In this document: positions 3,281 to 41,723 of the stretch, piece by piece | How the letters are laid out: each line of letters opens with the position of its first letter | Numbering within the stretch: position 1 is the first letter of the stretch | DNA from: Candidatus Woesebacteria bacterium | GTDB lineage: Bacteria; Patescibacteriota; Microgenomatia; UBA1400; PJMF01 | Assembly: GCA_050123235.1 (NCBI GenBank) | Contig: JASFHL010000002.1 | Span: 79,326 to 143,325 of the forward strand | DNA length: 64,000 nucleotides | Reading direction: 5' to 3' | Made by a program: the position numbers and the translations under genes | The notes under the pieces: model-generated | The model's input: the letters and a program-made list of their open reading frames with translations, nothing else | What the model was told of the DNA's origin: nothing | Database searches by the model: none

Positions 3281-4423
3281 ATGATTCCAAAAATAACAAC
3301 TAAATTAGATAGAATACTTAATATGAAAAAACAAAGCAGTAAAAAAATCAATAAATCTATTCTTGATAGTCGTCAGGCAATCGCTAAGATCGACAAATCA
3401 AATGTCTTAGGTTCAGTTGAAGCTTTAGCTGATCAAATAAAACATATCTGGGAAATCGCTGATCAGAGTTTAAGCTTTAAAAGTAAAAACGAAATAGAAA
3501 ATGTAGTAGTGACTGGCATGGGTGGCTCTGCACTAGGGCCAGATGTAGTTAAGTATCTTTTTAAGGAAAAATTAGATCTTCCCTTTGAAGTAGTCAATAG
3601 TTATACCCTTCCTAATTATGTCAATCAACACAGTTTGGTCATCCTTTCGAGCTATTCAGGCACTACTGAAGAGGTCTTAGCTTGTAGCAAAGAAGTAGAG
3701 AAAAAAAATGCCCAAGTCATGGTCATTACTGCTGGTGGTGAATTAAAAAAAATAGCTGAAAAAAAAAGTTATCCCTTATTATTGATCGATCCTAAATACA
3801 ACCCTTGTGGAGAACCAAGAATGGCTATCGGCTATGCTATTTTTGGAATGATTGCTCTTCTTAGTAAAGCAGGCATTATCCAAATCTCAGAAGATGAGAC
3901 CAAAGAAGTGATTACCACTATTATTAGTGTCATAGAAAAATGCAAAGTAGAAGTTGAAGCTGAAAAAAACCAAGCTAAAACTTTGGCTTTTGCCCTTTAT
4001 GATAAAAGACCTATTTTTGTAGCAAGTGAATTTCTTACAGGAGCTGCGCATGTTGCTGCCAATCAATCCAACGAAAATGCCAAAGCTTTTGCTGACTACA
4101 AAATTATTCCTGAAATTAACCACCATCTCATGGAAGGTCTACACTTCCCTAAAAGTAATACCTACAGCCATTTATTTATTTTTTTCAATTCATCACTTTA
4201 TAATCCTAGAAACCAAAAAAGAATGAAACTAACTCAAAGGGTAGTAGAAAAAAATCAGATAGAAACTTTAAGTATCAAACTTGAAAGTGAGAGCAAAATT
4301 ACCCAAGTTTTTGAATTAATCACTCTCACAGCCTACAGTATCTTTTATTTATCCATGCTCGAAAACGTCAACCCGGATGCTATTCCTTATGTAGATTGGT
4401 TTAAAGCTCAGATGAAAAAATAA
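3281..4423 (+). CDS. Bifunctional phosphoglucose/phosphomannose isomerase (SIS domain)
   Basis: SIS-domain glycine loop VVVTGMGGSALG and a second SIS-like segment, in the length range of archaeal/bacterial PGI/PMI proteins. It sits in a sugar-phosphate gene cluster. Confidence 0.65.
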   Translation: MIPKITTKLDRILNMKKQSSKKINKSILDSRQAIAKIDKSNVLGSVEALADQIKHIWEIADQSLSFKSKNEIENVVVTGMGGSALGPDVVKYLFKEKLDLPFEVVNSYTLPNYVNQHSLVILSSYSGTTEEVLACSKEVEKKNAQVMVITAGGELKKIAEKKSYPLLLIDPKYNPCGEPRMAIGYAIFGMIALLSKAGIIQISEDETKEVITTIISVIEKCKVEVEAEKNQAKTLAFALYDKRPIFVASEFLTGAAHVAANQSNENAKAFADYKIIPEINHHLMEGLHFPKSNTYSHLFIFFNSSLYNPRNQKRMKLTQRVVEKNQIETLSIKLESESKITQVFELITLTAYSIFYLSMLENVNPDAIPYVDWFKAQMKK

Positions 4424-6742: not shown

Positions 6743-8047
6743 ATGTCTAAAATTCAAACTATTCAAGCCAGAGAGATTATGGATTCGAGAGGTCTCCCTA
6801 CTGTTGAAGTAAGTTTGTGGTTGGAAAATGGGCAATCAGTTACTACTAGTGTGCCAAGTGGTACATCAAAAGGGAAAGATGAAGCCCTAGAATTAAGAGA
6901 TGAAGATCCAGAAAGAATGTTTGGGCAAGGTGTGCTTAAAGCTGTAGAAAATGTAAATAAGGTTCTAGGTCCAAAAATAATTGGTATGGATCCTACTCAA
7001 CAGTTAGAAATTGACCAATTAATGATTAATCTTGACGGTAGTAAAAATAAAAATCAACTAGGAGCAAATGCTATTTTAGCTGTTTCTCAAGCTGTATTAA
7101 AAGCTGGAGCCTTGGCTAGTAATTTACCAGTCTACAGCTATGTACAACAAAAATATCAACTCACAACTGAGCTAGCTATTCCTAATTGTATCTACAGTGT
7201 GGTTAATGGAGGTGAGCATGGAGCTGATAATCTTGATATTCAAGAATTCCAAGTCATAGTTGCCAGTAATTATGATTTCCCAACAGCTTTAGGCATAGTT
7301 GCTACTTTTCAAAAAAAACTAGAAGAAGTGCTAATTATTAAAGGAGCAATTCATTCAGTTGGTCTGTTAGGAGGCTTTACCCCTAATCTTTACAATAACA
7401 CTGACGTATTCGAAATATTAATCGAGACAAGCAAAACTACTGCTTATAAATTCGCCCAAGACATTTTTTTTGGAATTGACGCTTCGGCTTCATCATTCTT
7501 CAGCCACAATAAATATACTTTAAAGGATAAACCTCAACCATATTCTGCTGCTGAATTACTAGAATATTATAAAAATATCAGAAACACTTACAAAGTAATT
7601 TATATTGAAGATCCATTCCAAGAGGATGACAAACAGAGTTGGCAAAATATTACTAATGAAATGGGTGAAACCACCAAAATTGCCGGTGATAGTTTTTTGG
7701 TCACTAATAAAGAAAAAATTGATCAAGCAATCAAAGATAAAAGTTGCAATACCTTAGTAGCCAAACCAAACCAAATTGGTAGCATTAGTGAAACAATAGA
7801 TGTGATCAGTATAGCTAAACAAGCAGGTTGGCAAGTAGCAATATCCCATCGCAGTGGTGAGACTACTGATGATTTAATCGCAGATCTAGCAGTTGGAGTA
7901 GGAGCTGATTTTAGTAAATTTGGACCAATTAACAGAGGAGAAAGAACAGTCAAATATAACCGCTTATTAAAAATTTATCAAGATATTGCTCCTCAAAAAC
8001 AGCCCAATCAAAGTGACTCCCTTCAAAATAATAATGCTCAAACATAA
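6743..8047 (+). CDS. eno: Enolase (phosphopyruvate hydratase)
   Basis: Canonical N-terminus MSKIQTIQAREIMDSRGLPTVEV and active-site region SHRSGETTDDLIADLAV. The track ORF starts at 6692, but the conserved enolase start is M at 6743. Confidence 0.9.
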   Translation: MSKIQTIQAREIMDSRGLPTVEVSLWLENGQSVTTSVPSGTSKGKDEALELRDEDPERMFGQGVLKAVENVNKVLGPKIIGMDPTQQLEIDQLMINLDGSKNKNQLGANAILAVSQAVLKAGALASNLPVYSYVQQKYQLTTELAIPNCIYSVVNGGEHGADNLDIQEFQVIVASNYDFPTALGIVATFQKKLEEVLIIKGAIHSVGLLGGFTPNLYNNTDVFEILIETSKTTAYKFAQDIFFGIDASASSFFSHNKYTLKDKPQPYSAAELLEYYKNIRNTYKVIYIEDPFQEDDKQSWQNITNEMGETTKIAGDSFLVTNKEKIDQAIKDKSCNTLVAKPNQIGSISETIDVISIAKQAGWQVAISHRSGETTDDLIADLAVGVGADFSKFGPINRGERTVKYNRLLKIYQDIAPQKQPNQSDSLQNNNAQT

Positions 8048-24390: not shown

Positions 24391-25413
24391 ATGTTTAACT
24401 TTTTTCACCACAAAAAAAAGCAAGTGGAAATTTCCCCTTCAATAGTTGTCTTTTCTGCCTTTTTTTTACTCTTTCTATATTTTCTATATTACATTAGTTC
24501 AATCATTACGCTTTTATTTTTATCATTCATCATTATGATTGCTCTCAACGGAGCAGTAGCAAAAATTGAAAAACGCTTTAAAATTAATAGATTATTCAGT
24601 GTCATTTTTATTTATATTTTGGTGGTGCTAGTGAGCGTTACTATTTTTGCCTATTTGGTACCACCATTGGCTAAACAAGTCTACTTATTGCTACAAAGCA
24701 TTGATTTACCAGTAATAGATCATCTCAATAGCGTTGATAATTTGACTGAATTGAGTGAGCTGGCAGGAAAATATAGTAATTCTGTTAACACTATTTTTTC
24801 CTTTATCACTTCTACTTTTGCTAGTATCTTTACTTTCTTTACCTTGATAGTAATGTCTTTCTACTTAATTCTAGATAGACCAAAACTACACCTTAAACTT
24901 TATTGGTTTACCAAAGATAAAAAGAAAATTAAAATTGCCCAGGATTTTCTAGATTCAATTGAAAGTCAGCTCGGTGGTTGGGTCAGAGGACAGATCATTC
25001 TCATGACTATTATTGGCTTGGCTACCTTTCTGGGTCTGACTGTACTAAAAGTGCCATTTGCTTTGCCACTTGCTCTTTTGGCAGGGTTGTTGGAAATTTT
25101 ACCAAATCTAGGACCCACTATCGCTGCTGTGCCAGCAGTAGCTCTGGCTTTTATTAATCTTGGCCCTGCACGGGGACTAGCAACACTAATTTTCTATATT
25201 ATAGTTCAACAAGTAGAAAACAATTTTATAGTTCCAAAGATTATGAAGGAAAATGCTGATGTCAATCCTTTAGTGGCTATTACTTGTATCTTAATTGGTT
25301 TTAAAATTTATTCTGTAGTTGGGGCATTATTGGCAATTCCTGTTTATATTATTCTTAGAACTCTTTATTCCTTCTGGGCAAAATATAAAAAAAATATAGA
25401 AGCACCTTGGTGA
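24391..25413 (+). CDS. AI-2E family transporter (UPF0118/PerM-like)
   Basis: Eight predicted TM helices and the conserved LGGWVRGQ segment. Confidence 0.75.
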   Translation: MFNFFHHKKKQVEISPSIVVFSAFFLLFLYFLYYISSIITLLFLSFIIMIALNGAVAKIEKRFKINRLFSVIFIYILVVLVSVTIFAYLVPPLAKQVYLLLQSIDLPVIDHLNSVDNLTELSELAGKYSNSVNTIFSFITSTFASIFTFFTLIVMSFYLILDRPKLHLKLYWFTKDKKKIKIAQDFLDSIESQLGGWVRGQIILMTIIGLATFLGLTVLKVPFALPLALLAGLLEILPNLGPTIAAVPAVALAFINLGPARGLATLIFYIIVQQVENNFIVPKIMKENADVNPLVAITCILIGFKIYSVVGALLAIPVYIILRTLYSFWAKYKKNIEAPW

Positions 25414-25438
25414 GTAGATTTTTCGCAAAATAAAAAAT

Positions 25439-25507
25439 GAGCGGGTAACGATAAACTGCTCGAACCTAAGACCTCTTATCGAGCCTAGTTTGGAACTCCA
25501 GTTTCGT
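25439..25507. repeat. Truncated copy (C) of a conserved non-coding repeat family
   Basis: The 28-nt core GAGCGGGTAACGATAAACTGCTCGAACC is identical to the core in copy B (28536-28563). Following similarity is weaker (…CTAGTTTGGAACTCCAGTTTCG). On the minus strand the core is followed by ATTTTTTATTTTG. Confidence 0.6.
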
Positions 25508-25554
25508 AATTTGAAAGATCATCTTGGCATTTTCAGCTTTTCTCAAATATCTAG

Positions 25555-26451
25555 CTAGAAAGAAACATCATTCAAATCAGAACTAATATTTTGAGCAGAT
25601 ACTTTTAAAGCGTTATTTTGAGGAGCTAGTTTAACTACTTCGTCAATAAATTGCGTTTTTTCAGTAGAATTGACGACATAAAGCGGGTTGCCATCAACTG
25701 TGGATGATTGTGATCCGTATTTTTTTACAAGATCTACAAACTGCTGGTCTTTTAAAATATCAAGATTCATAACTCGCACTATTGTTCCAGAGGATGCATC
25801 CCTTTTTTCTCCGATTAAGTCTATCCACACACCCAACGAGCTTATTCCATATGGACCTGGTTCTCTTACATTCAACCAATAGCTTTGACCATTGATCATA
25901 ACCGTTTTATAGTTACTTAAGGATTGGAAATTATCTCCCATCCCCATATATTTTGAGTTTTGGTGGAAGAAATACACATTTCTGATGTCGCCTGAAAATT
26001 CAGGATTTTCAACTCTGATGGACATATTGGCATAATTTTCGTCGGGAACAAAACAGTTTATTGAATTTTGAACACCGTAGGCAGTTTTTATTGATTGATC
26101 TAAAGTGAACGGTAGTTTGTTTAGACTGATCTTACTATTTAGGCAAAATTGAGAAAGGGCTTCAGATAGGTTAATTTTATTTGTTGTTTCTGTAGAGGCA
26201 GATGATGGGATTATAATTTCATCATTTCTCTCACTTATTGGAGTAGGAGTTGTCTGTTCTATTGACTTTAACGGTTGAGATTTATTACCAATGTAATATC
26301 CACTCAAGCCGAAGACTACAGCAGTAACCAAAAAAGTAATCAGTAATGGGAATAATATGTTATTCTTGTTTGTTGAAAAATTTTCAGCTTGGACAACTGG
26401 CCGATTAACTATAGTATTTTCGGGTGGATTTGCTTGACTTTTATCTTCCAT
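25555..26451 (-). CDS. Hypothetical membrane-anchored protein (N-terminal TM, extracytoplasmic domain)
   Basis: A single N-terminal hydrophobic helix, then an S/T/N-rich linker. No motif recognised. Confidence 0.4.
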   Translation of the reverse strand: MEDKSQANPPENTIVNRPVVQAENFSTNKNNILFPLLITFLVTAVVFGLSGYYIGNKSQPLKSIEQTTPTPISERNDEIIIPSSASTETTNKINLSEALSQFCLNSKISLNKLPFTLDQSIKTAYGVQNSINCFVPDENYANMSIRVENPEFSGDIRNVYFFHQNSKYMGMGDNFQSLSNYKTVMINGQSYWLNVREPGPYGISSLGVWIDLIGEKRDASSGTIVRVMNLDILKDQQFVDLVKKYGSQSSTVDGNPLYVVNSTEKTQFIDEVVKLAPQNNALKVSAQNISSDLNDVSF

Positions 26452-26496
26452 ATTTTAATTATGGCTTAACTAAAGATAAATAACAAGAACATTTGC

Positions 26497-26722
26497 GGTT
26501 CGATTCCCATCACCGGTATTGCAACTTTCCAGACTAAACGAATTTTTGTAAAAGATGAGGCTCAAACTCGAGGAAATGCGAACTACTTGGGGAAAATTGA
26601 AGCCACAACAAAACTGCTCCCGTATGGAGCGGGTATGAGCGGGTAACGGTACTTTGCTCGAACCTATTTGGCCTGGACGACTATATCAAACCCGATCTAG
26701 TTTTGCAGTTACAAGCTCTTAA
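26497..26722. repeat. Copy A of the roughly 220-nt conserved non-coding repeat
   Basis: Collinear with copy B over about 220 nt (start GGTTCGATTCCCATCACCGGTATT … end CCCGATCTAGTTTTGCAGTT), with a 10-nt internal tandem duplication (GAGCGGGTAT-GAGCGGGTAA). It lies immediately 3' of the minus-strand gene 26737..27288. Confidence 0.7.
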
Positions 26723-26736
26723 GGGTCACTTAAATA

Positions 26737-27288
26737 TTAAGAGTTTTTCTCAAATAATTTAAACATTTGTGATTCTTTATCGTATGAACGAGCAGTTTCA
26801 AAAGCCTCCTCTAGAGATTTTTTGTTTTGAGCCAACTCATATGCGATATGAGTACCAAATAAATACGCTGAATTCCCGAAAGGCGCTCCAGAGGGTGCAA
26901 TATATTTTTTCACACCTGCATCTAGAAATGAGTTTGCTAGCTCTTTGTTTCCGGTCTCACACCCCAAGCTAACAATATTTTTATCTTTCAGATTTGCATA
27001 TTCCTTCACATCTTCTGCAGATAATGGTTTTTCTCCTGGGCATGTATATATGCCTTCTTTTTCATCACCATGGCATGCAATAAAAATTAAGTCTTCAGTT
27101 TTAATATTACCTTTGAGTATTTCTAGCAACTGTTTTCTGGATCCAATAAAGTGAATGTTTACATTGAACCAAAACCTTTCAAAAGCAAGTCTTAAGGCTT
27201 GAGCTTCAAGATCTGAATTTTCTAAAACAATTAGCGAAACTGGCAATTGTGATACTAACGGTGCTTCATGGTATTTATGTTCAGACAT
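26737..27288 (-). CDS. Small caspase-like protein, clan-CD peptidase-like His/Cys dyad (paralog 1)
   Basis: Beta-strand then HG (DLIFIACHGDEKEG), and about 35 aa later a second strand then Cys (NIVSLGCETGN). This is the pattern of caspase/CHAT p20 domains. It is a paralog of 28663..29298. Confidence 0.4.
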   Translation of the reverse strand: MSEHKYHEAPLVSQLPVSLIVLENSDLEAQALRLAFERFWFNVNIHFIGSRKQLLEILKGNIKTEDLIFIACHGDEKEGIYTCPGEKPLSAEDVKEYANLKDKNIVSLGCETGNKELANSFLDAGVKKYIAPSGAPFGNSAYLFGTHIAYELAQNKKSLEEAFETARSYDKESQMFKLFEKNS

Positions 27289-27477
27289 ATCAAGTTAATT
27301 ATAGAAGAATTGGCTACGCTTTGGTATAGTCAGCTTACCGAATGATCTCTATGGTGAAGGTGCCTTACTTTTAGGGAACGATTGTTGGTGCTGGTGCACC
27401 AGTGATCCATCTTAGCTACAGGGATCGCTAGTCACTAATCAAGATGGAGAAATTTATTTTGCTCAAAATAACATTTT

Positions 27478-28359
27478 ATGTCACAAGGAAAGATTTTTGA
27501 ACAAATTGTCAGTTTGATCGAACACAGTTTAAAAAGTGACGAGAATGTCACAGTAAAGCACGATGTCAAACTAGTTGATTCATTAGGAATAGAAAGACAA
27601 ATTGATGTTTATATAACAGCTTTTATAAATGAGCATGAAATCACTGTCGCCATTGAGTGTAAGGATCACAACAGTAAAGTAAAAATTACTGAAATAGATG
27701 CATTTGATAGTAAAACTCGGAAACTTGCGGTGGATAAGCGAATATTTGTTTCTAAAAATGGTTATCAGTCAGGAGCAATCAAAACTGCAAAAAAAACAGG
27801 AATAGAATTGTGCACCCTTTCAAATCTTTCAAAAGAAGTACTAAAATCTTGGTTGCAAATACCAGGACTTCAAATGATAAATCAAATATATGATTTTAAA
27901 CACTCAAGATTTAATTTAGCTAAAGAAACGACAGTCAAAAAATTACCACCAAATTATGATATTGAGTCAAATCTATACTTGGCTGACAAGAAAAAACAAA
28001 TATCTACATCAGAGGTTAGACAGAACCTTATTAATCAGCTCTCAAAGCAACATCCTGACTTTTTTGAACCCAATAAGACCAAAAAAGTAGTTTTCAATTT
28101 CCCCAAGGAACCATATTACTTAAAAATTAATAATTTATTTGAACGAATAGATAATATTGAATCAATTATTTTTTTTAGATCGGAAATAACAAATCACCCG
28201 ATTTCTTATATACAACAATATTCACAGATTAATGGAAAAAATATTGCGAAGGCAGCGTCAATCGAGTTTCCTGCGTTATCTCAAGAATTTATCTTGAGCT
28301 TTGTTAGGTCAGAAAGTGACAACCTTACAAGGGTAGTTATTGCACCCAAAAAGAAATAG
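27478..28359 (+). CDS. Protein with an N-terminal Mrr-type restriction endonuclease (PD-(D/E)xK) domain and a C-terminal region of unknown function
   Basis: LVDSLGIERQIDVYI…ITVAIECKDHNSKVKITEIDAF…IFVSKNGYQSGAIKTAKKTGIELCTL fits the Mrr_cat pattern (D…ExK, followed by the conserved A…A…gI.L segment). The C-terminal roughly 170 aa have no recognisable motif. Confidence 0.55.
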   Translation: MSQGKIFEQIVSLIEHSLKSDENVTVKHDVKLVDSLGIERQIDVYITAFINEHEITVAIECKDHNSKVKITEIDAFDSKTRKLAVDKRIFVSKNGYQSGAIKTAKKTGIELCTLSNLSKEVLKSWLQIPGLQMINQIYDFKHSRFNLAKETTVKKLPPNYDIESNLYLADKKKQISTSEVRQNLINQLSKQHPDFFEPNKTKKVVFNFPKEPYYLKINNLFERIDNIESIIFFRSEITNHPISYIQQYSQINGKNIAKAASIEFPALSQEFILSFVRSESDNLTRVVIAPKKK

Positions 28360-28404
28360 ATTTATGGGATACTTTGTTTTATTATTGAACTGGCTCCGAC
28401 GGAG

Positions 28405-28622
28405 GAGTTCGATTCTCGTCACCGGTATTATACCTTTCCAGGCTAACGTAATTTTTGTGAATTTTGAGGCTCGAACTCGGGGAAAGATGGATTACTTTGG
28501 GAAATTTTAGGCCACGACAAAACTACTCCCGTATGGAGCGGGTAACGATAAACTGCTCGAACCCATTTGGCCTGGATGACTATATCAAACCCGATCTGGT
28601 CTTGCAGTTGAATCTTCTTAAA
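28405..28622. repeat. Copy B of the roughly 220-nt conserved non-coding repeat
   Basis: Collinear with copy A. It contains the core GAGCGGGTAACGATAAACTGCTCGAACC (28536-28563) and internal complementary segments (GAGTTCGA / TCGAACTC). It lies immediately 3' of the minus-strand gene 28663..29298. Confidence 0.7.
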
Positions 28623-28662
28623 GAGCGAATGGGTATTAGATCCCTTGTTAATACTTAACCTT

Positions 28663-29298
28663 CTAATTATTAAGTCTTTTGTCTGTTGGTTCTATAAGTA
28701 CTCTTTCGGCTTGATTTAGGACACCAGAAATTCCCTGTACATAATATATTGGACAACCAATCTCGTCGACTATCCACTGTGGAATATTATAAGTACCCAC
28801 CCCTTCTGAGTTAGCACTACAAGCATCAAACGCTATTAATGTATATTTATTTTTGCCTGTTAAATCCTTGATTGGACCTCTCAAAAAATCTTCAACATCA
28901 ACAATTTTTTCACCAAATCCTTTAGTAGAAATAATCCATCGACCCTGTTTTTCTGCACCATGTCCATGAATAAGAAGTATGTTTGGAGATTCTGCAGATA
29001 ATATATCAATCAACCTGTTTTGTACAGAATCATAACTATCTCTTTTAATGCCAAAAATTCTTGTCAAAGAAATTAGAGGTTTAAATCTCGCATCTTTGAA
29101 CTCATGTTTTTCACCAAAAACTGTAACTTCTTCTACTGTATGTTGCCAATCAAGTATGACGCTATCGACACGAGCATCTCTTTCAAACTCAGGAGTAAAT
29201 TGAAAACCTGACTCTGTTAACACGAAAGGCCCTTTGTTAAATACTATTCGTGCCTTATCACCCTGCTGAAGAACATAATCAGTATAATTTTCAGGCAT
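28663..29298 (-). CDS. Small caspase-like protein, clan-CD peptidase-like His/Cys dyad (paralog 2)
   Basis: NILLIHGHGAEKQG (HG motif) and KYTLIAFDACSANSEG (Cys motif), with the same spacing and pattern as 26737..27288, plus an extra N-terminal extension of about 80 aa. Confidence 0.4.
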   Translation of the reverse strand: MPENYTDYVLQQGDKARIVFNKGPFVLTESGFQFTPEFERDARVDSVILDWQHTVEEVTVFGEKHEFKDARFKPLISLTRIFGIKRDSYDSVQNRLIDILSAESPNILLIHGHGAEKQGRWIISTKGFGEKIVDVEDFLRGPIKDLTGKNKYTLIAFDACSANSEGVGTYNIPQWIVDEIGCPIYYVQGISGVLNQAERVLIEPTDKRLNN

Positions 29299-29349
29299 AT
29301 TTCATGATATTACTTAATGTAATTTTCTGTTTATTTCTGCCACTTTTTG

Positions 29350-29422
29350 AGCGAGAGACGGGATTCGAACCCGCGACCTTCTCCTTGGCAAGGAGACATT
29401 CTAGCCACTGAACTACTCTCGC
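29350..29422 (-). tRNA. tRNA-Gly (anticodon GCC)
   Basis: Reverse complement folds: acceptor GCGAGAG, anticodon stem CTCCT/AGGAG with loop TT-GCC-AA, T-arm GCGGGTTCGAATCCCGT. Confidence 0.8.
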
Positions 29423-29499
29423 TTTTCTTAATCAAAACTTAGCTAAAATTTCTAGCACCAGTCTTTCAATTTTTAATCTCCAACTTTTAACTCATTCTG

Positions 29500-29572
29500 T
29501 GCCAAGCTGAGGAATCGAACCTCAATCTCATGTTTTTCAGACACGCGCCGTGACCAACTTGGCTAGCTTGGC
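29500..29572 (-). tRNA. tRNA-Phe (anticodon GAA)
   Basis: Reverse complement: acceptor GCCAAGC, anticodon loop CT-GAA-AA, T-arm TGAGGTTCGATTCCTCA. Confidence 0.8.
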
Positions 29573-29639
29573 TAATTTTATCTTATCTTAAAAACAACCT
29601 CCCTATCCTAGCCTTATTCTAAAAATTTTTCAAGCCTAG

Positions 29640-29713
29640 TGGGCAATGTAGGATTCGAACCTACGACCTCTTCGATGTAAGCGAAGCACTCTAACCAGCT
29701 GAGCTAATTGCCC
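29640..29713 (-). tRNA. tRNA-Val (anticodon TAC)
   Basis: Reverse complement: GGGCAATTAGCTCAGCTGGTTAGAGTG…, anticodon loop CT-TAC-AT, T-arm GTAGGTTCGAATCCTAC. Confidence 0.8.
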
Positions 29714-30022: not shown

Positions 30023-31351
30023 ATGATCACAGTCACTCCAGAAAAACCGCTATCAGCTAGCAACGTGGAGGGTGATCCTGCTACCGAAAGACAACTTTCA
30101 GCTCCTCCCCAACTTCGACCTAGAGAAATTGCTTATCAGGAACCCGGTGAGCCTTTGTCAGGAGAAAGATTGGAAGAATTAAGAGAAATTTTAGCTCTAG
30201 ATCATCAGCCTACTTTAGAAGCCTTAGCTTCTCATCTTTTTCAGAGTGACTTGGATCGAGCTCAAGAGTATTTGGCAGAATTAGCAATTGTAATGAATTT
30301 CCCAACAACGAAACTTTTTGTTCGTGATGCTAATACTGTTTTCCAAGATAAAGAAACTCTTGATTTAAAATTGAGCTTACTTGGCATAAATCCTCACACT
30401 TTTGGGGATCTTATGAGGATCAGAAATAACGATCCACAAGCAAATATAAGTAGAGCCACTTTGCTGAAAGAAGTTAATGACAGCAGCTTTACCGTAGCAA
30501 AAAGACTAGCTGAAGTTTGGACTGAAGTAAACTCAAGAGGCTACAAAGGTTACGTTGATTTATTAAATCAAATGGGTTGCACTCAAGAAAGAATAGCTGA
30601 TGCTGAAATTTTATTGGCTAATCTAGTAAACAGATTTTTACCAGGATTAACTGATGTACTTGATATCCATGATCCTCAATATAATCATAATCCAAATTTA
30701 GCATTGCCAGAATTACGACTGGCTGCAGCAAGTTCTAAAGAACTAGAAGAACTTTTTGGTCTAGATACTATCCCTTCTGCAGAATCAGATCTATTAGCTC
30801 CAGGTACGGCTACAGCTATGTTTTTTGCTAGAATTAATGAGCAAGAAAAATTAGAAAAAAAAGTGACCATTCTTCATGGCAAAGGTGATCCAAGAACAAA
30901 ACATGAAGTAGGACACGTATTAACTGATTATGCTTTAACTGATGCTGGTTTGCCTTTCTCATTAATGACTGATATGGAATTAACTGAAGCTGCCAGTAGA
31001 TTCAGCGAAAGAATGGATATCAGAGAAACTATTTTTAATCTTGCTACTTTAGTGGCAAGTTATAGATTAGCTAAAGACATAGATACATTGATGAGAATAC
31101 CACAACTAGATTTAGATAAAAAGATTTTTGTTTTGCAAGACGATATAACAGAAGCAGCGGACCAAGAATTAGATTGTGGCATTAAAGCGGCACCAGGAGC
31201 TGCTCATCTTTGGATGGGCCCTTTTGCAGTACCATATTGGATGGGTACTGCCAGCGCTGTTTCTATGAGGCTAGCTTTAAGTGAAGAAGAAAATCCTAAA
31301 ACTCAGATAGAAGCGATTGCCATGGTTTTGCAACAATATGGAGTTCTCTAG
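30023..31351 (+). CDS. Hypothetical protein with G+C and codon usage atypical for the window (possibly acquired)
   Basis: A 442-aa ORF rich in L/E/A/D. G+C is visibly higher than in flanking genes (frequent CTG, GCC, CGA, GAG codons). No motif recognised. Confidence 0.5.
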   Translation: MITVTPEKPLSASNVEGDPATERQLSAPPQLRPREIAYQEPGEPLSGERLEELREILALDHQPTLEALASHLFQSDLDRAQEYLAELAIVMNFPTTKLFVRDANTVFQDKETLDLKLSLLGINPHTFGDLMRIRNNDPQANISRATLLKEVNDSSFTVAKRLAEVWTEVNSRGYKGYVDLLNQMGCTQERIADAEILLANLVNRFLPGLTDVLDIHDPQYNHNPNLALPELRLAAASSKELEELFGLDTIPSAESDLLAPGTATAMFFARINEQEKLEKKVTILHGKGDPRTKHEVGHVLTDYALTDAGLPFSLMTDMELTEAASRFSERMDIRETIFNLATLVASYRLAKDIDTLMRIPQLDLDKKIFVLQDDITEAADQELDCGIKAAPGAAHLWMGPFAVPYWMGTASAVSMRLALSEEENPKTQIEAIAMVLQQYGVL

Positions 31352-41407: not shown

Positions 41408-41485
41408 TAACTATTTATTATTGTTTTATTTTCAAATAATCCGGACGTCCCAATTTTAAAAACTTAATTTCCTATCCAATATATG

Positions 41486-41578
41486 TGCCCAGGAGAGGAC
41501 TTGAACCTCCACGAAATAAATTCACAGCCTCCTCAAGACTGCGCGTCTACCAGTTCCGCCACCTGGGCTAATAGATTT
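41486..41578 (-). tRNA. tRNA-Leu (anticodon GAG), long variable arm
   Basis: Reverse complement: GCCCAGGTGGCGGAACTGGTAGACGC…, anticodon loop TT-GAG-GA, long variable arm, T-arm GGAGGTTCAAGTCCTCT. Confidence 0.75.
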
Positions 41579-41638
41579 ATATATTATAAAACCAATCATC
41601 CTGAAGCTCAAATCAAGAAATCACAAAAATCAAGTCTG

Positions 41639-41723
41639 TGCCGAAGAGAGGATTTGAACCTCCACCCCGCTAAGCAGGACACGCTTCTGAGGCGTGCGCG
41701 TCTACCAATTCCGCCACTTCGGC
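41639..41723 (-). tRNA. tRNA-Leu (anticodon CAG), long variable arm
   Basis: Reverse complement: GCCGAAGTGGCGGAATTGGTAGACGC…, anticodon stem CACGC/GCGTG with loop CT-CAG-AA, T-arm GGAGGTTCAAATCCTCT. Track ORFs 41483..41878 and 41608..41814 over the tRNAs are spurious. Confidence 0.8.

Follow-up and report, generated by a model that had tools for sequence, protein, structure and literature searches.

Three direct repeats behind a tRNA-Gly gene of a Candidatus Woesebacteria genome are gene cassette junctions and probably att-type sites

What is a repeat that occurs three times, each time just 3' of another gene, within a few kilobases of the genome of a Candidatus Woesebacteria bacterium? The first-pass annotation of this stretch of DNA (64,000 nucleotides, here called the window) described copies A, B and C of a conserved non-coding element with an invariant 28-nt core, and offered a structured 3'-UTR or sRNA, an att-like repeat left by serial insertion of modules or a miniature mobile element as its identity. 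The repeat is genuine but does not represent a non-coding RNA. Its copies are the distal junctions of gene cassettes, one per cassette, and these cassettes are stacked downstream of tRNA-Gly(GCC). Every junction consists of two parts, a 28-nt core imitating the 3' end of tRNA-Gly (T-loop and acceptor end) and a small ORF on the plus strand that starts at the core. Listed from the tRNA genes outwards, the locus contains the following features.

29639–29713: tRNA-Val, which precedes tRNA-Gly(GCC)
29499–29572: tRNA-Phe, which precedes tRNA-Gly(GCC)
29349–29422, minus strand: tRNA-Gly(GCC), anchor of the array (attB-like platform), found by ARAGORN and Rfam (tRNA, 70.5 bits)
29299–29348, minus strand: promoter-like "type-2" arm, AAAAAGTGGCAGAAATAAACAGAAAATTACATTAAGTAATATC
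28663–29298, minus strand: cassette 1 cargo, an ORF for a 211-aa protein without Pfam or PADLOC match
28533–28658, plus strand: small ORF of copy B, intact (ATG and 41 codons, MERVTINCSNPFGLDDYIKPDLVLQLNLLKERMGIRSLVNT, stop), converging on the cassette 1 cargo
28536–28563, plus strand: core B, GAGCGGGTAACGATAAACTGCTCGAACC, defined by 28-mer search, comparison with tRNA-Gly and the homology boundaries between loci
28405–28535, minus strand: "type-1" arm that belongs to cassette 2 and forms the left arm of copy B
27478–28359, plus strand and thus in opposite orientation: cassette 2 cargo a, a 293-aa Mrr-type restriction-endonuclease-like protein (Pfam Mrr_cat, 2.4e-07)
26737–27288, minus strand: cassette 2 cargo b, a 183-aa protein (ORF list, Pfam scan and cross-locus comparison)
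26637–26762, plus strand: small ORF of copy A (ERVTVLCSNLFGLDDYIKPDLVLQLQALKGHLNIKSFSQII, stop), without usable start
26637–26664, plus strand: core A, GAGCGGGTAACGGTACTTTGCTCGAACC, deviating from B and C at 4 positions
26497–26626, minus strand: type-1 arm that belongs to cassette 3 and forms the left arm of copy A, 81% identical to the B arm and upstream of the 298-aa cargo gene
25555–26451, minus strand: cassette 3 cargo, a 298-aa protein (previously called a membrane protein) without family match
25439–25558, plus strand: copy C, with its core at 25439–25466 (identical to B) and a divergent small ORF (ERVTINCSNLRPLIEPSLELQFRNLKDHLGIFSFSQISS, stop)

The proposed collinearity of copies A (26497–26722) and B (28405–28622) was borne out at 81–85% identity, and the 10-nt tandem duplication in A is indeed present (GAGCGGGTAT at 26627–26636), where it forms a duplicated mini-junction ahead of core A. 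The core of copy C at 25439 is identical to that of B in 28/28 nt as stated, but the end assigned to this copy at 25507 is wrong; its homology continues at the protein level to the stop codon at 25556–25558. Neither is the core invariant, as copy A deviates at 4 of the 28 positions. A search with the 28-mer gave 0 chance matches in 100 shuffles. All three copies lie just 3' of a minus-strand gene (28663–29298, 26737–27288 and 25555–26451), as had been noted. Two of these genes had been regarded as caspase-like paralogs. They share only about 30% identity over 47 aa, too little for the repeat to have come about as a mere consequence of gene duplication. Searches of the window cargo against PADLOC and PDB sequences gave no match and did not confirm the caspase-like label.

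Read on the minus strand, core B is GGTTCGAGCAGTTTATCGTTACCCGCTC(CA), a mimic of the T-loop and acceptor 3' end of tRNA-Gly, and its outer edge coincides with a homology boundary between loci; the core in general (GGTTCGAGC..CGTTACCCGCTC[CA]) has the same resemblance. On this strand the type-1 arm of copy B follows the core as such arms follow real tRNA-Gly genes elsewhere. It contains the tRNA-like motifs TTCCCAAAG and GAGTTCGAGCC and terminates in an inverted T-arm/acceptor-like motif (plus strand GGAGTTCGATTCTCGTCACCGGT). The first cassette is inserted directly at the tRNA 3' end: the type-2 arm begins right after ..CGCTC of tRNA-Gly(GCC) at 29349, extends up to the start codon (ATG) of the first cargo gene and includes TAAACA-18-TATCAT at 29333–29304, which is sigma-70-like as a consensus match. 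Beyond copy C, the most distal junction of the array, the tRNA sense leads into a native flank rich in T and then to the convergent gene of an AI-2E transporter (24391–25413). An AI-2E gene followed by a core was likewise seen in one of the related loci (L005).

The first-pass annotation had found no conserved reading frame and had argued against protein coding, which is wrong for the right half and thus for about half of the element. The plus-strand frame is open from the core to a stop in 3/3 copies, encodes 41 aa beginning with (M)ERVTIxCSNLFSLDDYIKPDLVLQL.. and converges with the cargo gene. Within 28565–28610 all differences between A and B are at third codon positions, copy C differs by an in-frame gap of 9 nt, and across the family the indels are in frame as well (−9, +18, +30 and +78 nt). 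Diversity at the three codon positions is 0.26/0.13/0.43 for 39 distinct small-ORF copies. For loci found through the DNA core alone it shows a coding pattern downstream of nt 54–57 in short forms (0.31/0.23/0.50) and in long forms (0.15/0.09/0.33), and the frame is open for at least 37 codons in 20 of the 24 DNA-detected copies. The first ~54 nt of each junction, which overlap the start of the small gene, are constrained at the nucleic-acid level. Homologues of the product are rare (only 21 small hypothetical proteins among 5.8 billion proteins, and 57 representatives among 1.84 billion), and amino-acid substitutions across the 21 are conservative. Judged by this sequence signature, the small ORF is a real gene for a predicted acidic, helical protein of 41–75 aa. 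Its AlphaFold2 model is a two-helix hairpin (pLDDT 66) with no match in the PDB at E ≤ 0.001, and the product has no match in Pfam, NCBIfam or PHROGs. A fragment of a larger known protein was also considered and rejected, all homologues being small orphan proteins.

An in-frame start codon is missing from about half of the small-ORF copies. This is unexpected in a gene under selection and counts against the reading of the repeats that we favour. One such copy is C, with AAT ahead of the frame. Copy A, whose small ORF has a 26-nt overlap with the 3' end of the 183-aa gene, is without usable start because its 10-nt duplication makes the upstream ATG (26623) read ATG GAG CGG GTA TGA. At one related locus (L017) GAGGA-N4-ATG stands ahead of the small ORF. 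The junctions differ slightly exactly at the junction, where CA, CCA or A is found, and a junction reading ..CCA followed by T provides the ATG of the small gene through its complement.

Could the repeat still act as a structured RNA that recurs because several genes use it? On the minus strand it might be a tRNA-like 3'-UTR or a processing signal, on the plus strand a 5' hairpin in the small mRNA. Motifs that resemble a T-loop or end in CCA do occur, and the minus strand has a short hairpin with a T-run at the core/arm junction (28539–28525 and 26630–26616). On the plus strand the inverted repeat GAGCN..NGCTC of the core contains one covarying pair (GU 19, UA 7, UG 4, CG 3), with 84% of cells paired vs 80% in shuffles; this covariation is only suggestive, since codons 2 and 7 of the ORF are a confounding factor. 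Against this reading, Rfam gave no match to the element at the gathering threshold in the whole window or at E ≤ 10 in 25300–28800, and nothing on it in 15 related loci (Rfam 15), its only finds overall being ordinary tRNAs and one 5S rRNA; ARAGORN also had no match to the element. Neither strand folded with a better energy than its shuffled versions (z = +0.2 and +0.9), and the consensus fold of 12 type-1 arms reached −4.3 kcal/mol with essentially no covariation. The segments GAGTTCGA and TCGAACTC, previously taken as a sign of RNA structure, are conserved in sequence without covariation. As the right half evolves as plus-strand coding sequence, and as an RNA would leave the anchoring at tRNA-Gly, the tandem arrays and the homology boundaries at the core unexplained, we regard a structured RNA as highly improbable. 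T-loop/CCA-like motifs combined with an ORF lacking a start codon also led us to consider a tmRNA, a permuted tmRNA and a split tRNA. They were rejected, as ARAGORN found none, the ORF and the tRNA-like motifs are on opposite strands and there is no complementary acceptor strand. An extension of the cargo into the repeat by stop-codon recoding was dismissed too, the stops being TAG and TAA and not TGA.

In order to place the window among its relatives, we compared it with 96 related loci (97 sources, 715 kb in total). In 30 of the 97, two to four copies are present, always direct and 0.5–2.7 kb apart. Among the 51 loci with at least 2.5 kb of room, 40 have a tRNA-Gly at the proximal end, on the opposite strand beyond the last copy and 170–2900 nt beyond the small ORF, and all isoacceptors occur (GCC in 11 loci, CCC in 17, TCC in 12). 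The locus maps read cargo, junction, cargo, junction and then tRNA-Gly. Within the cassettes the arm stands directly at the junction and the cargo starts 15–50 nt further; internal junctions bear arms, and distal flanks are unique, often with a terminator hairpin and T-run. Three arm types are common to real tRNA-Gly 3' ends and cores. The type-2 motif AAAGTGACAGAAATAAACA..TTACATTAA occurs in about 20 loci, where it stands behind true tRNA-Gly genes as well as internal cores, and arms homologous to the type-1 arm of copy B are located directly downstream of tRNA-Gly in seven (L008, L019, L029, L074, L024, L077 and L084); the arm of copy A belongs to the same family as the type-1 arms of related loci. 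One identical cassette stands behind the 3' end of tRNA-Thr(CGT) in L033 and behind a core in L034, a comparison weakened because metagenome assemblies can mis-join at repeats. The distal repeat is similar to a tRNA 3' end (GGTTCGA.. ..CCCGCTC[CA]) but about 5 nt longer, and has 4–13 terminal nt in common with the resident tRNA-Gly, in the window only 5 (CGCTC). The core of L044 contains the tRNA-specific 13-mer CCGTATCTCGCTC, the signature of a hybrid site and the sole clear hybrid.

The cargo itself is highly diverse, with 92 Pfam families in 113 ORFs including PIN, AbiEii, HNH, EcoRI methylase, GmrSD and metabolic enzymes, and about two thirds of the ORFs (80 of 121) run with the tRNA. Cassettes are exchanged as modules at the core: of 29 homology blocks between non-syntenic loci, 25 begin no more than 10 nt from its first base, and a DUF4143 ATPase cassette bounded by cores is common to L003, L004, L023, L026 and L038. 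In the window, 26635–27276 (core A, small ORF and 183-aa gene) matches L046 3434–4075 with 83% identity, where the counterpart is the first cassette and adjoins tRNA-Gly(CCC). This block is without arm, so the limits of a cassette are not always arm to core.

Of the identities first offered, the att-like repeat from serial module insertion is thus supported by the two to four tandem cassettes behind tRNA-Gly, the homology blocks starting at the core and the hybrid core/tRNA sequence. We consider it likely that the repeats are attP-derived junctions (attR-type) of small integrative cassettes, which were inserted serially at the 3' end of tRNA-Gly(GCC). In tRNA direction the layout is tRNA-Gly, then three units of arm, cargo gene(s), antisense small ORF and core, and then the native flank. 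A site-specific recombinase would join the core of a circular cassette or phage genome to the tRNA 3' end or to an existing core, presumably with crossover in the last 5–13 nt of the acceptor-like end. The newest cassette would displace the older ones from the tRNA, and one core would remain per cassette. Arms of type 2 bring a promoter-like motif, those of types 1 and 3 a 130-nt spacer with many tRNA-like motifs. Points against this reading are the short identity between the window cores and the resident tRNA-Gly, the armless block shared with L046, the lack of a linked recombinase, and the three samples that contain this genome, which agree in their arrangement at the window locus, with neither strain variation nor an empty site or excised circle among them.

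The same pattern might arise by homologous recombination if the junction (core and small ORF) and the tRNA/arm served as portable homology arms, at which DNA taken up swaps or adds cargo as in the minimal mobile elements of naturally competent bacteria. This would need no recombinase, and none was found; the conserved blocks (54–130 nt) are long enough, the window cores equal the resident tRNA over just those 5 nt and the block shared with L046 has one boundary inside a cassette instead of at an arm. However, the 25 of 29 boundaries at 0–10 nt from the core are sharper than expected, the outside flanks and tRNA partners (Gly GCC/CCC/TCC and Thr) are unrelated, the heterogeneity of CA, CCA or A is located exactly at the junction, a hybrid core exists and site-specific integration typically accumulates units in tandem. 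Together this makes homologous recombination very unlikely in our view.

A large phage-like element bearing genes for a tail fibre, an M23 peptidase and LPD38 also ends exactly at the identical junction, and it has differing outside flanks in L017, L053, L055, L056, L063 and L093. The cassettes could accordingly be prophage scars rather than mobile units, each junction being the attR remnant of a tRNA-Gly temperate phage that was mostly deleted and left an att-proximal "moron", the small ORF and the core. The lack of an integrase in or near the cassettes fits this, as do the duplication that breaks copy A and the missing start codons, as would be expected of decaying remnants. It is countered by cassettes that are consistently tiny (0.5–2.7 kb) and complete end to end, by small ORFs that are still open in most copies and by the presence of the same single-gene cassettes in different genomes, ranks and tRNA-Gly isoacceptors, with homology stopping at the cores, which independent deletions would not yield. 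Prophage scars are therefore an unlikely explanation.

Queries with XerD, lambda Int, Cre and gamma-delta resolvase (tblastn, phmmer) gave nothing significant, whether in the 715 kb of DNA or among 571 ORFs. Pfam scans of large cargo, flanks, L077/L079, L082 and both flanks of the L051 copy revealed no linked integrase, and their only finds were one large serine recombinase (L033, 2.9 kb outside the array) and one IS630-type transposase; the cassettes and the window region contain neither a tyrosine nor a serine recombinase. The cassette arrangement recurs in dozens of Patescibacteria genomes with no recombinase gene nearby, and an integrase encoded by a phage or the chromosome may act in trans. 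Viral contigs scanned for the type-1 arm, the type-2 arm and the core gave 0 matches each.

Other mobile elements were considered as well. A miniature mobile element does not agree with copies that occur only as direct repeats linked to the 3' end of a tRNA, and beyond the three there are no dispersed copies in the window. An IS or MITE terminus was rejected likewise, as the 64-kb window holds only three clustered direct copies, and elsewhere direct arrays adjoin tRNA genes; no target-site duplications were seen at the flanks. The VR/TR repeat of a DGR was rejected on inspection because the repeat is conserved across many genomes, and so was a dif/Xer (IMEX) site, since the core has only a short GAGC/GCTC inverted repeat and not the dif consensus.

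Among known systems, the tycheposons of Prochlorococcus insert themselves behind particular tRNA genes, at the 3' end, where successive integrations move older elements deeper into the island; they have adaptive or defence cargo, and some relatives are phage-like (bioRxiv 10.1101/2020.12.28.424599). The window system is alike in its insertion at a tRNA 3' end, probable outward displacement, adaptive or defence cargo and phage-like relatives. Tycheposons, however, have their own tyrosine recombinase and replication genes, whereas the cassettes found here mostly hold a single gene and no recombinase. Their repeat is simply part of a tRNA, about 40 nt long, in contrast to a diverged mimic that is about 5 nt longer than the tRNA 3' end, is identical to the resident tRNA over 4–13 nt and overlaps a conserved small protein gene, and all three tRNA-Gly isoacceptors as well as tRNA-Thr are used here.

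With integron arrays and CALINs (attC clusters without integrase) the system shares mostly single-gene cassettes, highly diverse and mostly co-oriented cargo, a recombination-site-like repeat at the cargo 3' end and the lack of a recombinase inside the cassettes. It differs in having no IntI, attI and Pc platform, as the first cassette abuts tRNA-Gly, which takes this role. The attC architecture, an imperfect R''/L''/L'/R' palindrome of 57–141 nt with a GTTRRRY core, is absent; GTTACCC of the junction CGTTACCCGCTC does not fit GTTRRRY, and the core has only a 4–5-bp GAGC/GCTC inverted repeat. Moreover, the repeat contains a protein-coding small ORF, and while integron cassettes are promoterless many cassettes here have their own promoter-like arm.

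In SSV-type archaeal integration attP lies inside a gene, that of the integrase itself (~335 aa), which is split. As is probable here, crossover takes place within a protein-coding gene or at its edge, so that after integration the junction sets the 5' end of the gene and translation includes the tRNA-like att sequence; the gene split in SSV encodes the integrase, whereas here it encodes a 41–75 aa orphan protein without recombinase features. The ssrA-specific islands of Dehalococcoides are reportedly arranged in tandem stacks separated by direct repeats of the gene 3' end, and are said to have their own serine recombinase and a repeat that is a plain ssrA 3' fragment of about 20 bp. Like the window system, these islands insert site-specifically where a small-RNA gene has its 3' end (PMC3146451). 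They target tmRNA, however, and not tRNA-Gly, and are not known to have an embedded small ORF.

In the literature we found no description of the present cassette system, and the repeats are best read as att-type junctions of a tRNA-anchored, integron-like cassette system. A wider reading, plausible and offered tentatively, is that Patescibacteria (Microgenomates-type CPR) have an undescribed integron-like form of gene capture. Its platform would be a tRNA gene (any tRNA-Gly isoacceptor, sometimes tRNA-Thr), its cassettes mostly single genes with their own promoter-like arm, and its site a tRNA-3'-end mimic fused to the start of a 41–75 aa orphan gene. Mobilisation would occur in trans by a recombinase, perhaps from temperate CPR phages that use the same site, and the small protein may be a dedicated accessory factor, for example for directionality or targeting. 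CPR/Patescibacteria have tiny genomes and, to our knowledge, few mobile elements are known from them. A compact array at tRNA-Gly, which recurs in dozens of lineages with restriction-modification, toxin-antitoxin, abortive infection and metabolic cargo and whose site is shared with temperate phages, would be a general route for the flux of defence and niche genes in this group. The combination of core and tRNA-Gly 3' end provides a defined substrate for finding the missing recombinase, and an orphan micro-protein gene physically joined to a recombination site is unusual in itself. The 28–54-nt site also predicts where the flexible genome is located in a MAG, and the repeats offer an explanation for assembly breaks at these regions.

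We could confirm from the first-pass annotation that copies A (26497-26722) and B (28405-28622) are collinear, with about 220 nt aligned at 81–85% identity, that copy A carries a 10-nt tandem duplication, that the 28-nt core of copy C, which starts at 25439, is the same 28-mer as that of copy B, and that every copy sits after the stop codon of a minus-strand gene. The B/C 28-mer occurred 0 times when the window was shuffled 100 times. Other parts of the description had to be revised. The core had been called invariant, but in copy A 4 of its 28 positions deviate from B and C, and the homology of copy C runs on to 25558, beyond the end assigned to it. The two genes taken for paralogs are only about 30% identical, over 47 aa, so that conservation is far higher in the repeat than in the genes preceding it. 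A conserved reading frame had been thought absent, but a plus-strand frame from the core is open to the stop in all three copies:

Copy B, plus strand, small ORF: MERVTINCSNPFGLDDYIKPDLVLQLNLLKERMGIRSLVNT, then stop
Copy A, plus strand, small ORF: ERVTVLCSNLFGLDDYIKPDLVLQLQALKGHLNIKSFSQII, then stop
Copy C, plus strand, small ORF: ERVTINCSNLRPLIEPSLELQFRNLKDHLGIFSFSQISS, then stop

An in-frame gap of 9 nt sets copy C apart from A and B, and the remaining indels of the small ORF are in frame as well. Scanning one genome per species for the DNA of the core only (pattern GAGCGGGTAACG-N6-TGCTCGAACC) gave 15 loci, nearly all from Patescibacteria; all of them continue the same peptide to the right of the core and are unrelated in sequence to its left. 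A few of the MAGs found are titled Pseudomonadales or Gammaproteobacteria, yet have 34–36% GC. The records of five related loci (L005, L007, L008, L015 and L016, all GTDB representative MAGs) bear such titles ('uncultured Pseudomonadales' or 'Gammaproteobacteria') together with this GC content, the same cassette system and a set of genes like that of Patescibacteria, and their titles are probably wrong. The peptide exists in a short form of 41 aa and a long form of about 70 aa with a 26-codon insert. After nt 57, the diversity at the three codon positions in the DNA-ascertained loci is 0.31/0.23/0.50 for short and 0.15/0.09/0.33 for long forms, and downstream in 39 distinct copies it is 0.26/0.13/0.43. 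At least 37 codons are open in 20 of the 24 copies found with the DNA profile, at 34–43% GC in the loci checked, and the homologue in the phage-like locus L017 is preceded by GAGGA-N4-ATG. Judged by their coding pattern, these sequences show the small ORF to be a real gene. The first 54 nt (core plus LFSLDDYIK) have no third-position excess (0.18/0.16/0.18 and 0.08/0.18/0.17), which therefore points to a constraint at the nucleic-acid level there too. The encoded protein is an orphan, with 21 homologues, all small and hypothetical, among 5.8 billion proteins, 57 representatives among 1.84 billion and no match in Pfam, NCBIfam or PHROG; its AlphaFold2 model predicts a two-helix hairpin, for which no neighbour was found in the PDB.

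On the minus strand copy B reads ..GGGTTCGAGCAGTTTATCGTTACCCGCTCCA TACGGGAG.., that is a T-loop motif and then ..ACCCGC-T-CCA, and real tRNA-Gly genes in related loci end ..GGGTTCGAxTCCCnnnnCCCGCTC(CA). By its motifs, the core on this strand is a look-alike of a tRNA-Gly 3' end. Cores and resident tRNA-Gly genes have 4–13 terminal nt in common, and the core of the related locus L044 holds the tRNA-specific 13-mer CCGTATCTCGCTC, as would be expected for a hybrid attR. The sequence following a tRNA 3' end or a core in the tRNA sense, which we call the arm, is of the same three kinds directly after both real tRNA-Gly genes and cores in the related loci:

Type 1 arm: about 130 nt, homologous to the left arms of copies A and B, with tRNA-like motifs and, at its terminus, an inverted T-arm/acceptor-like motif
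Type 2 arm: window 29348-29299, between tRNA-Gly and the ATG of a 211-aa gene, AAAGTGACAGAAATAAACA..TTACATTAA, with a sigma-70-like match to the consensus only
Type 3 arm: a third kind, with an end in common with type 1

The motif TTAGCCTGGA lies inside the small ORF, 4 nt after the core, and appears again inverted in the arm about 116 nt away (window 28441-28450 versus 28567-28576). The common end of type 1 and type 3 arms reads ..TTAGCCTGGAAAGT..ACCGGTAACGGGAATCGAACC, which gives the core motifs in inverted form and at canonical length. Both could be candidate binding sites for a recombinase or an accessory protein.

The complementary segments GTTCGA and TCGAAC had been read as a sign of RNA structure. 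In twelve homologous left arms this pairing is invariant and without covariation, and their consensus fold reaches only -4.3 kcal/mol. Rfam found ordinary tRNAs only in the window and no match for the element even at E<=10, ARAGORN found neither tRNA nor tmRNA at the element, and its minimum free energies lie at the level of shuffled sequences on both strands. The element is neither a known nor an evident RNA, and we give very little credence to a structured RNA as explanation of the repeats. The arms look tRNA-like to the eye only; the Rfam tRNA model gives them no score.

The junction (core plus small ORF) shows microheterogeneity, with CA, CCA or A. The small ORF takes its ATG from the complement of ..CCA plus T; junctions with ..CA plus T read TAT-GAG and leave the ORF without an in-frame start, and ATG or TTG stands immediately before the small ORF in 26 of 95 distinct junctions. 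The duplication in copy A results in ATG GAG CGG GTA TGA, which inactivates the ATG, and the only intact start in the window is that of copy B. This duplication (window 26623-26636) repeats the junction itself, in the tRNA sense ..ACCCGCTC AT ACCCGCTC CA.., and has the look of slippage at the crossover or of an empty mini-site. In the related locus L046 (3417-3449), a perfect palindrome of 15 bp, ACCCGCTCATTTTGC GAA GCAAAATGAGCGGGT, runs from the outside flank into the core, of which it takes up the first 8 nt, and may represent a recombination footprint or a terminator; a similar motif, ATTTT..CAAAAT, occurs in the flank of copy C (25418-25438).

Scanning metagenome contigs with a protein pattern yielded 80 further loci, and the array counts cover the window and 96 related loci (97 sources, 715 kb). 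Two to four copies are present in 30 of the 97 sources, always in direct orientation and spaced 0.5–2.7 kb apart. The sequence extends at least 2.5 kb beyond the last copy in 51 loci, and 40 of these have the array closed by an opposite-strand tRNA-Gly (GCC 11, CCC 17, TCC 12). The locus maps have the layout of the window, with flank, junction, cargo, junction, cargo and so on up to the tRNA-Gly and a maximum of four cassettes. Internal junctions are followed by arms and the most distal one by unique sequence, often with a terminator hairpin and T-run, which is the tRNA's native downstream flank. The cargo comprises 92 Pfam families matched by 113 distinct ORFs, including DUF4143 ATPases, HIT, HD, PIN, HNH, AbiEii, EcoRI methylase, GmrSD and several metabolic enzymes. 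In every sample with this genome the three cassettes are the same.

Homology blocks of at least 300 nt that include a core and come from non-syntenic loci begin within 10 nt of the core's first base in 25 of 29 cases; exchange by homologous recombination between conserved flanks we hold to be decidedly improbable. Window 26635-27276 (core A, small ORF and a 183-aa gene) matches the first cassette of L046, beside a tRNA-Gly(CCC), at 83% identity, and a core-bounded DUF4143 cassette is common to five loci. The contigs of loci L033 and L034 are 100% identical over a stretch of 1766 nt, and the identity breaks off exactly at a cassette junction (L033 6901-7056 versus L034 1687-1890); the same type 2 arm with a 221-aa cargo comes after the 3' end of tRNA-Thr(CGT) in one contig and after a core in the second, where an assembly artefact is possible. 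As far as such comparisons tell, cassettes are exchanged at the core. A few positions differ between L033 and L034 in the first ~20 nt of the arm (GTGACAAAAAT versus GTGGCAGAAAT), and the crossover zone may therefore reach into the arm.

The sole IMG/VR match is L017, on the 54-kb contig IMGVR_UViG_3300025010_001927, also named Ga0209319_1000442. Its junction lies beside a tRNA-Leu, some 100 nt short of the contig end, and the interior has genes for a MazE-like protein, an M23 peptidase, an LPD38 polyvalent protein and a tail fibre. Elements homologous to it begin exactly at the core in six loci (L053, L055, L056, L063, L067 and L093) with differing outside flanks, and the core is therefore also the chromosome junction of a temperate-phage-like element. 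That the repeats are scars of prophages is conceivable and in our judgement unlikely. Instead, we consider it probable that small integrative cassettes have accumulated at tRNA-Gly(GCC) through site-specific recombination and that the repeats are their attP-derived junctions, the site overlapping the 5' end of the small conserved gene. The tRNA-3'-end mimic would recombine with the tRNA end or an existing core, catalyzed by a recombinase acting in trans, with a phage as a plausible source.

No recombinase linked to the arrays was found in the window and the related loci, which take in the phage-like elements on their junction side. The only recombinase in the 715 kb is a 572-aa large serine recombinase (Resolvase, Recombinase and Zn_ribbon_recom) in L033 (764-2482, plus strand), which overlaps a tRNA-Lys(ttt) (2425-2501), lies outside the array, 2.9 kb past the most distal cassette, and may be part of a separate tRNA-Lys element or relevant to the arrays. 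An IS630-type DDE_3 transposase with HTH domains in L051 (10025-11110, plus strand) lies 4.4 kb away from a copy of the junction; it probably belongs to an unrelated insertion sequence.

Integrons and CALINs likewise include arrays of single-gene, integrase-less cassettes, but the system described here has no IntI, attI or attC architecture and thus falls outside what defines an integron. A related case is the integration of islands in Dehalococcoides at ssrA, the tmRNA gene (PMC3146451). Unlike classical islands, the cassettes have no element-borne integrase, and the repeat is a diverged tRNA mimic welded to a micro-ORF instead of a plain tRNA fragment. Our literature searches found no description of this tRNA-anchored cassette system.

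In L015 two copies of an entire tRNA-Thr(CGT) gene, each with its adjacent core (6-nt spacer, TGATTT) and the small ORF, flank (3635-3929 and 6848-7079) a 3-kb island with methyltransferase-like and PIN-domain genes, and an ORF resembling by eye an excisionase/MerR-like HTH lies just outside it (7308-7703). Beside the arrays of L012 (3223-3573 and 3916-5112) and L005 (2980-3879) there are ORFs that by eye look like an Avd-like four-helix bundle and reverse transcriptases, which may represent a diversity-generating retroelement. In the window, a plus-strand 442-aa ORF (30023-31351) with no Pfam or PADLOC match lies directly past the tRNA-Val-Phe-Gly cluster. The tRNA-Leu genes directly continue this cluster in the relatives L020 and L027 and are 12 kb off in the window (41485-41723), an arrangement that suggests a further insertion or rearrangement within the window's tRNA cluster.
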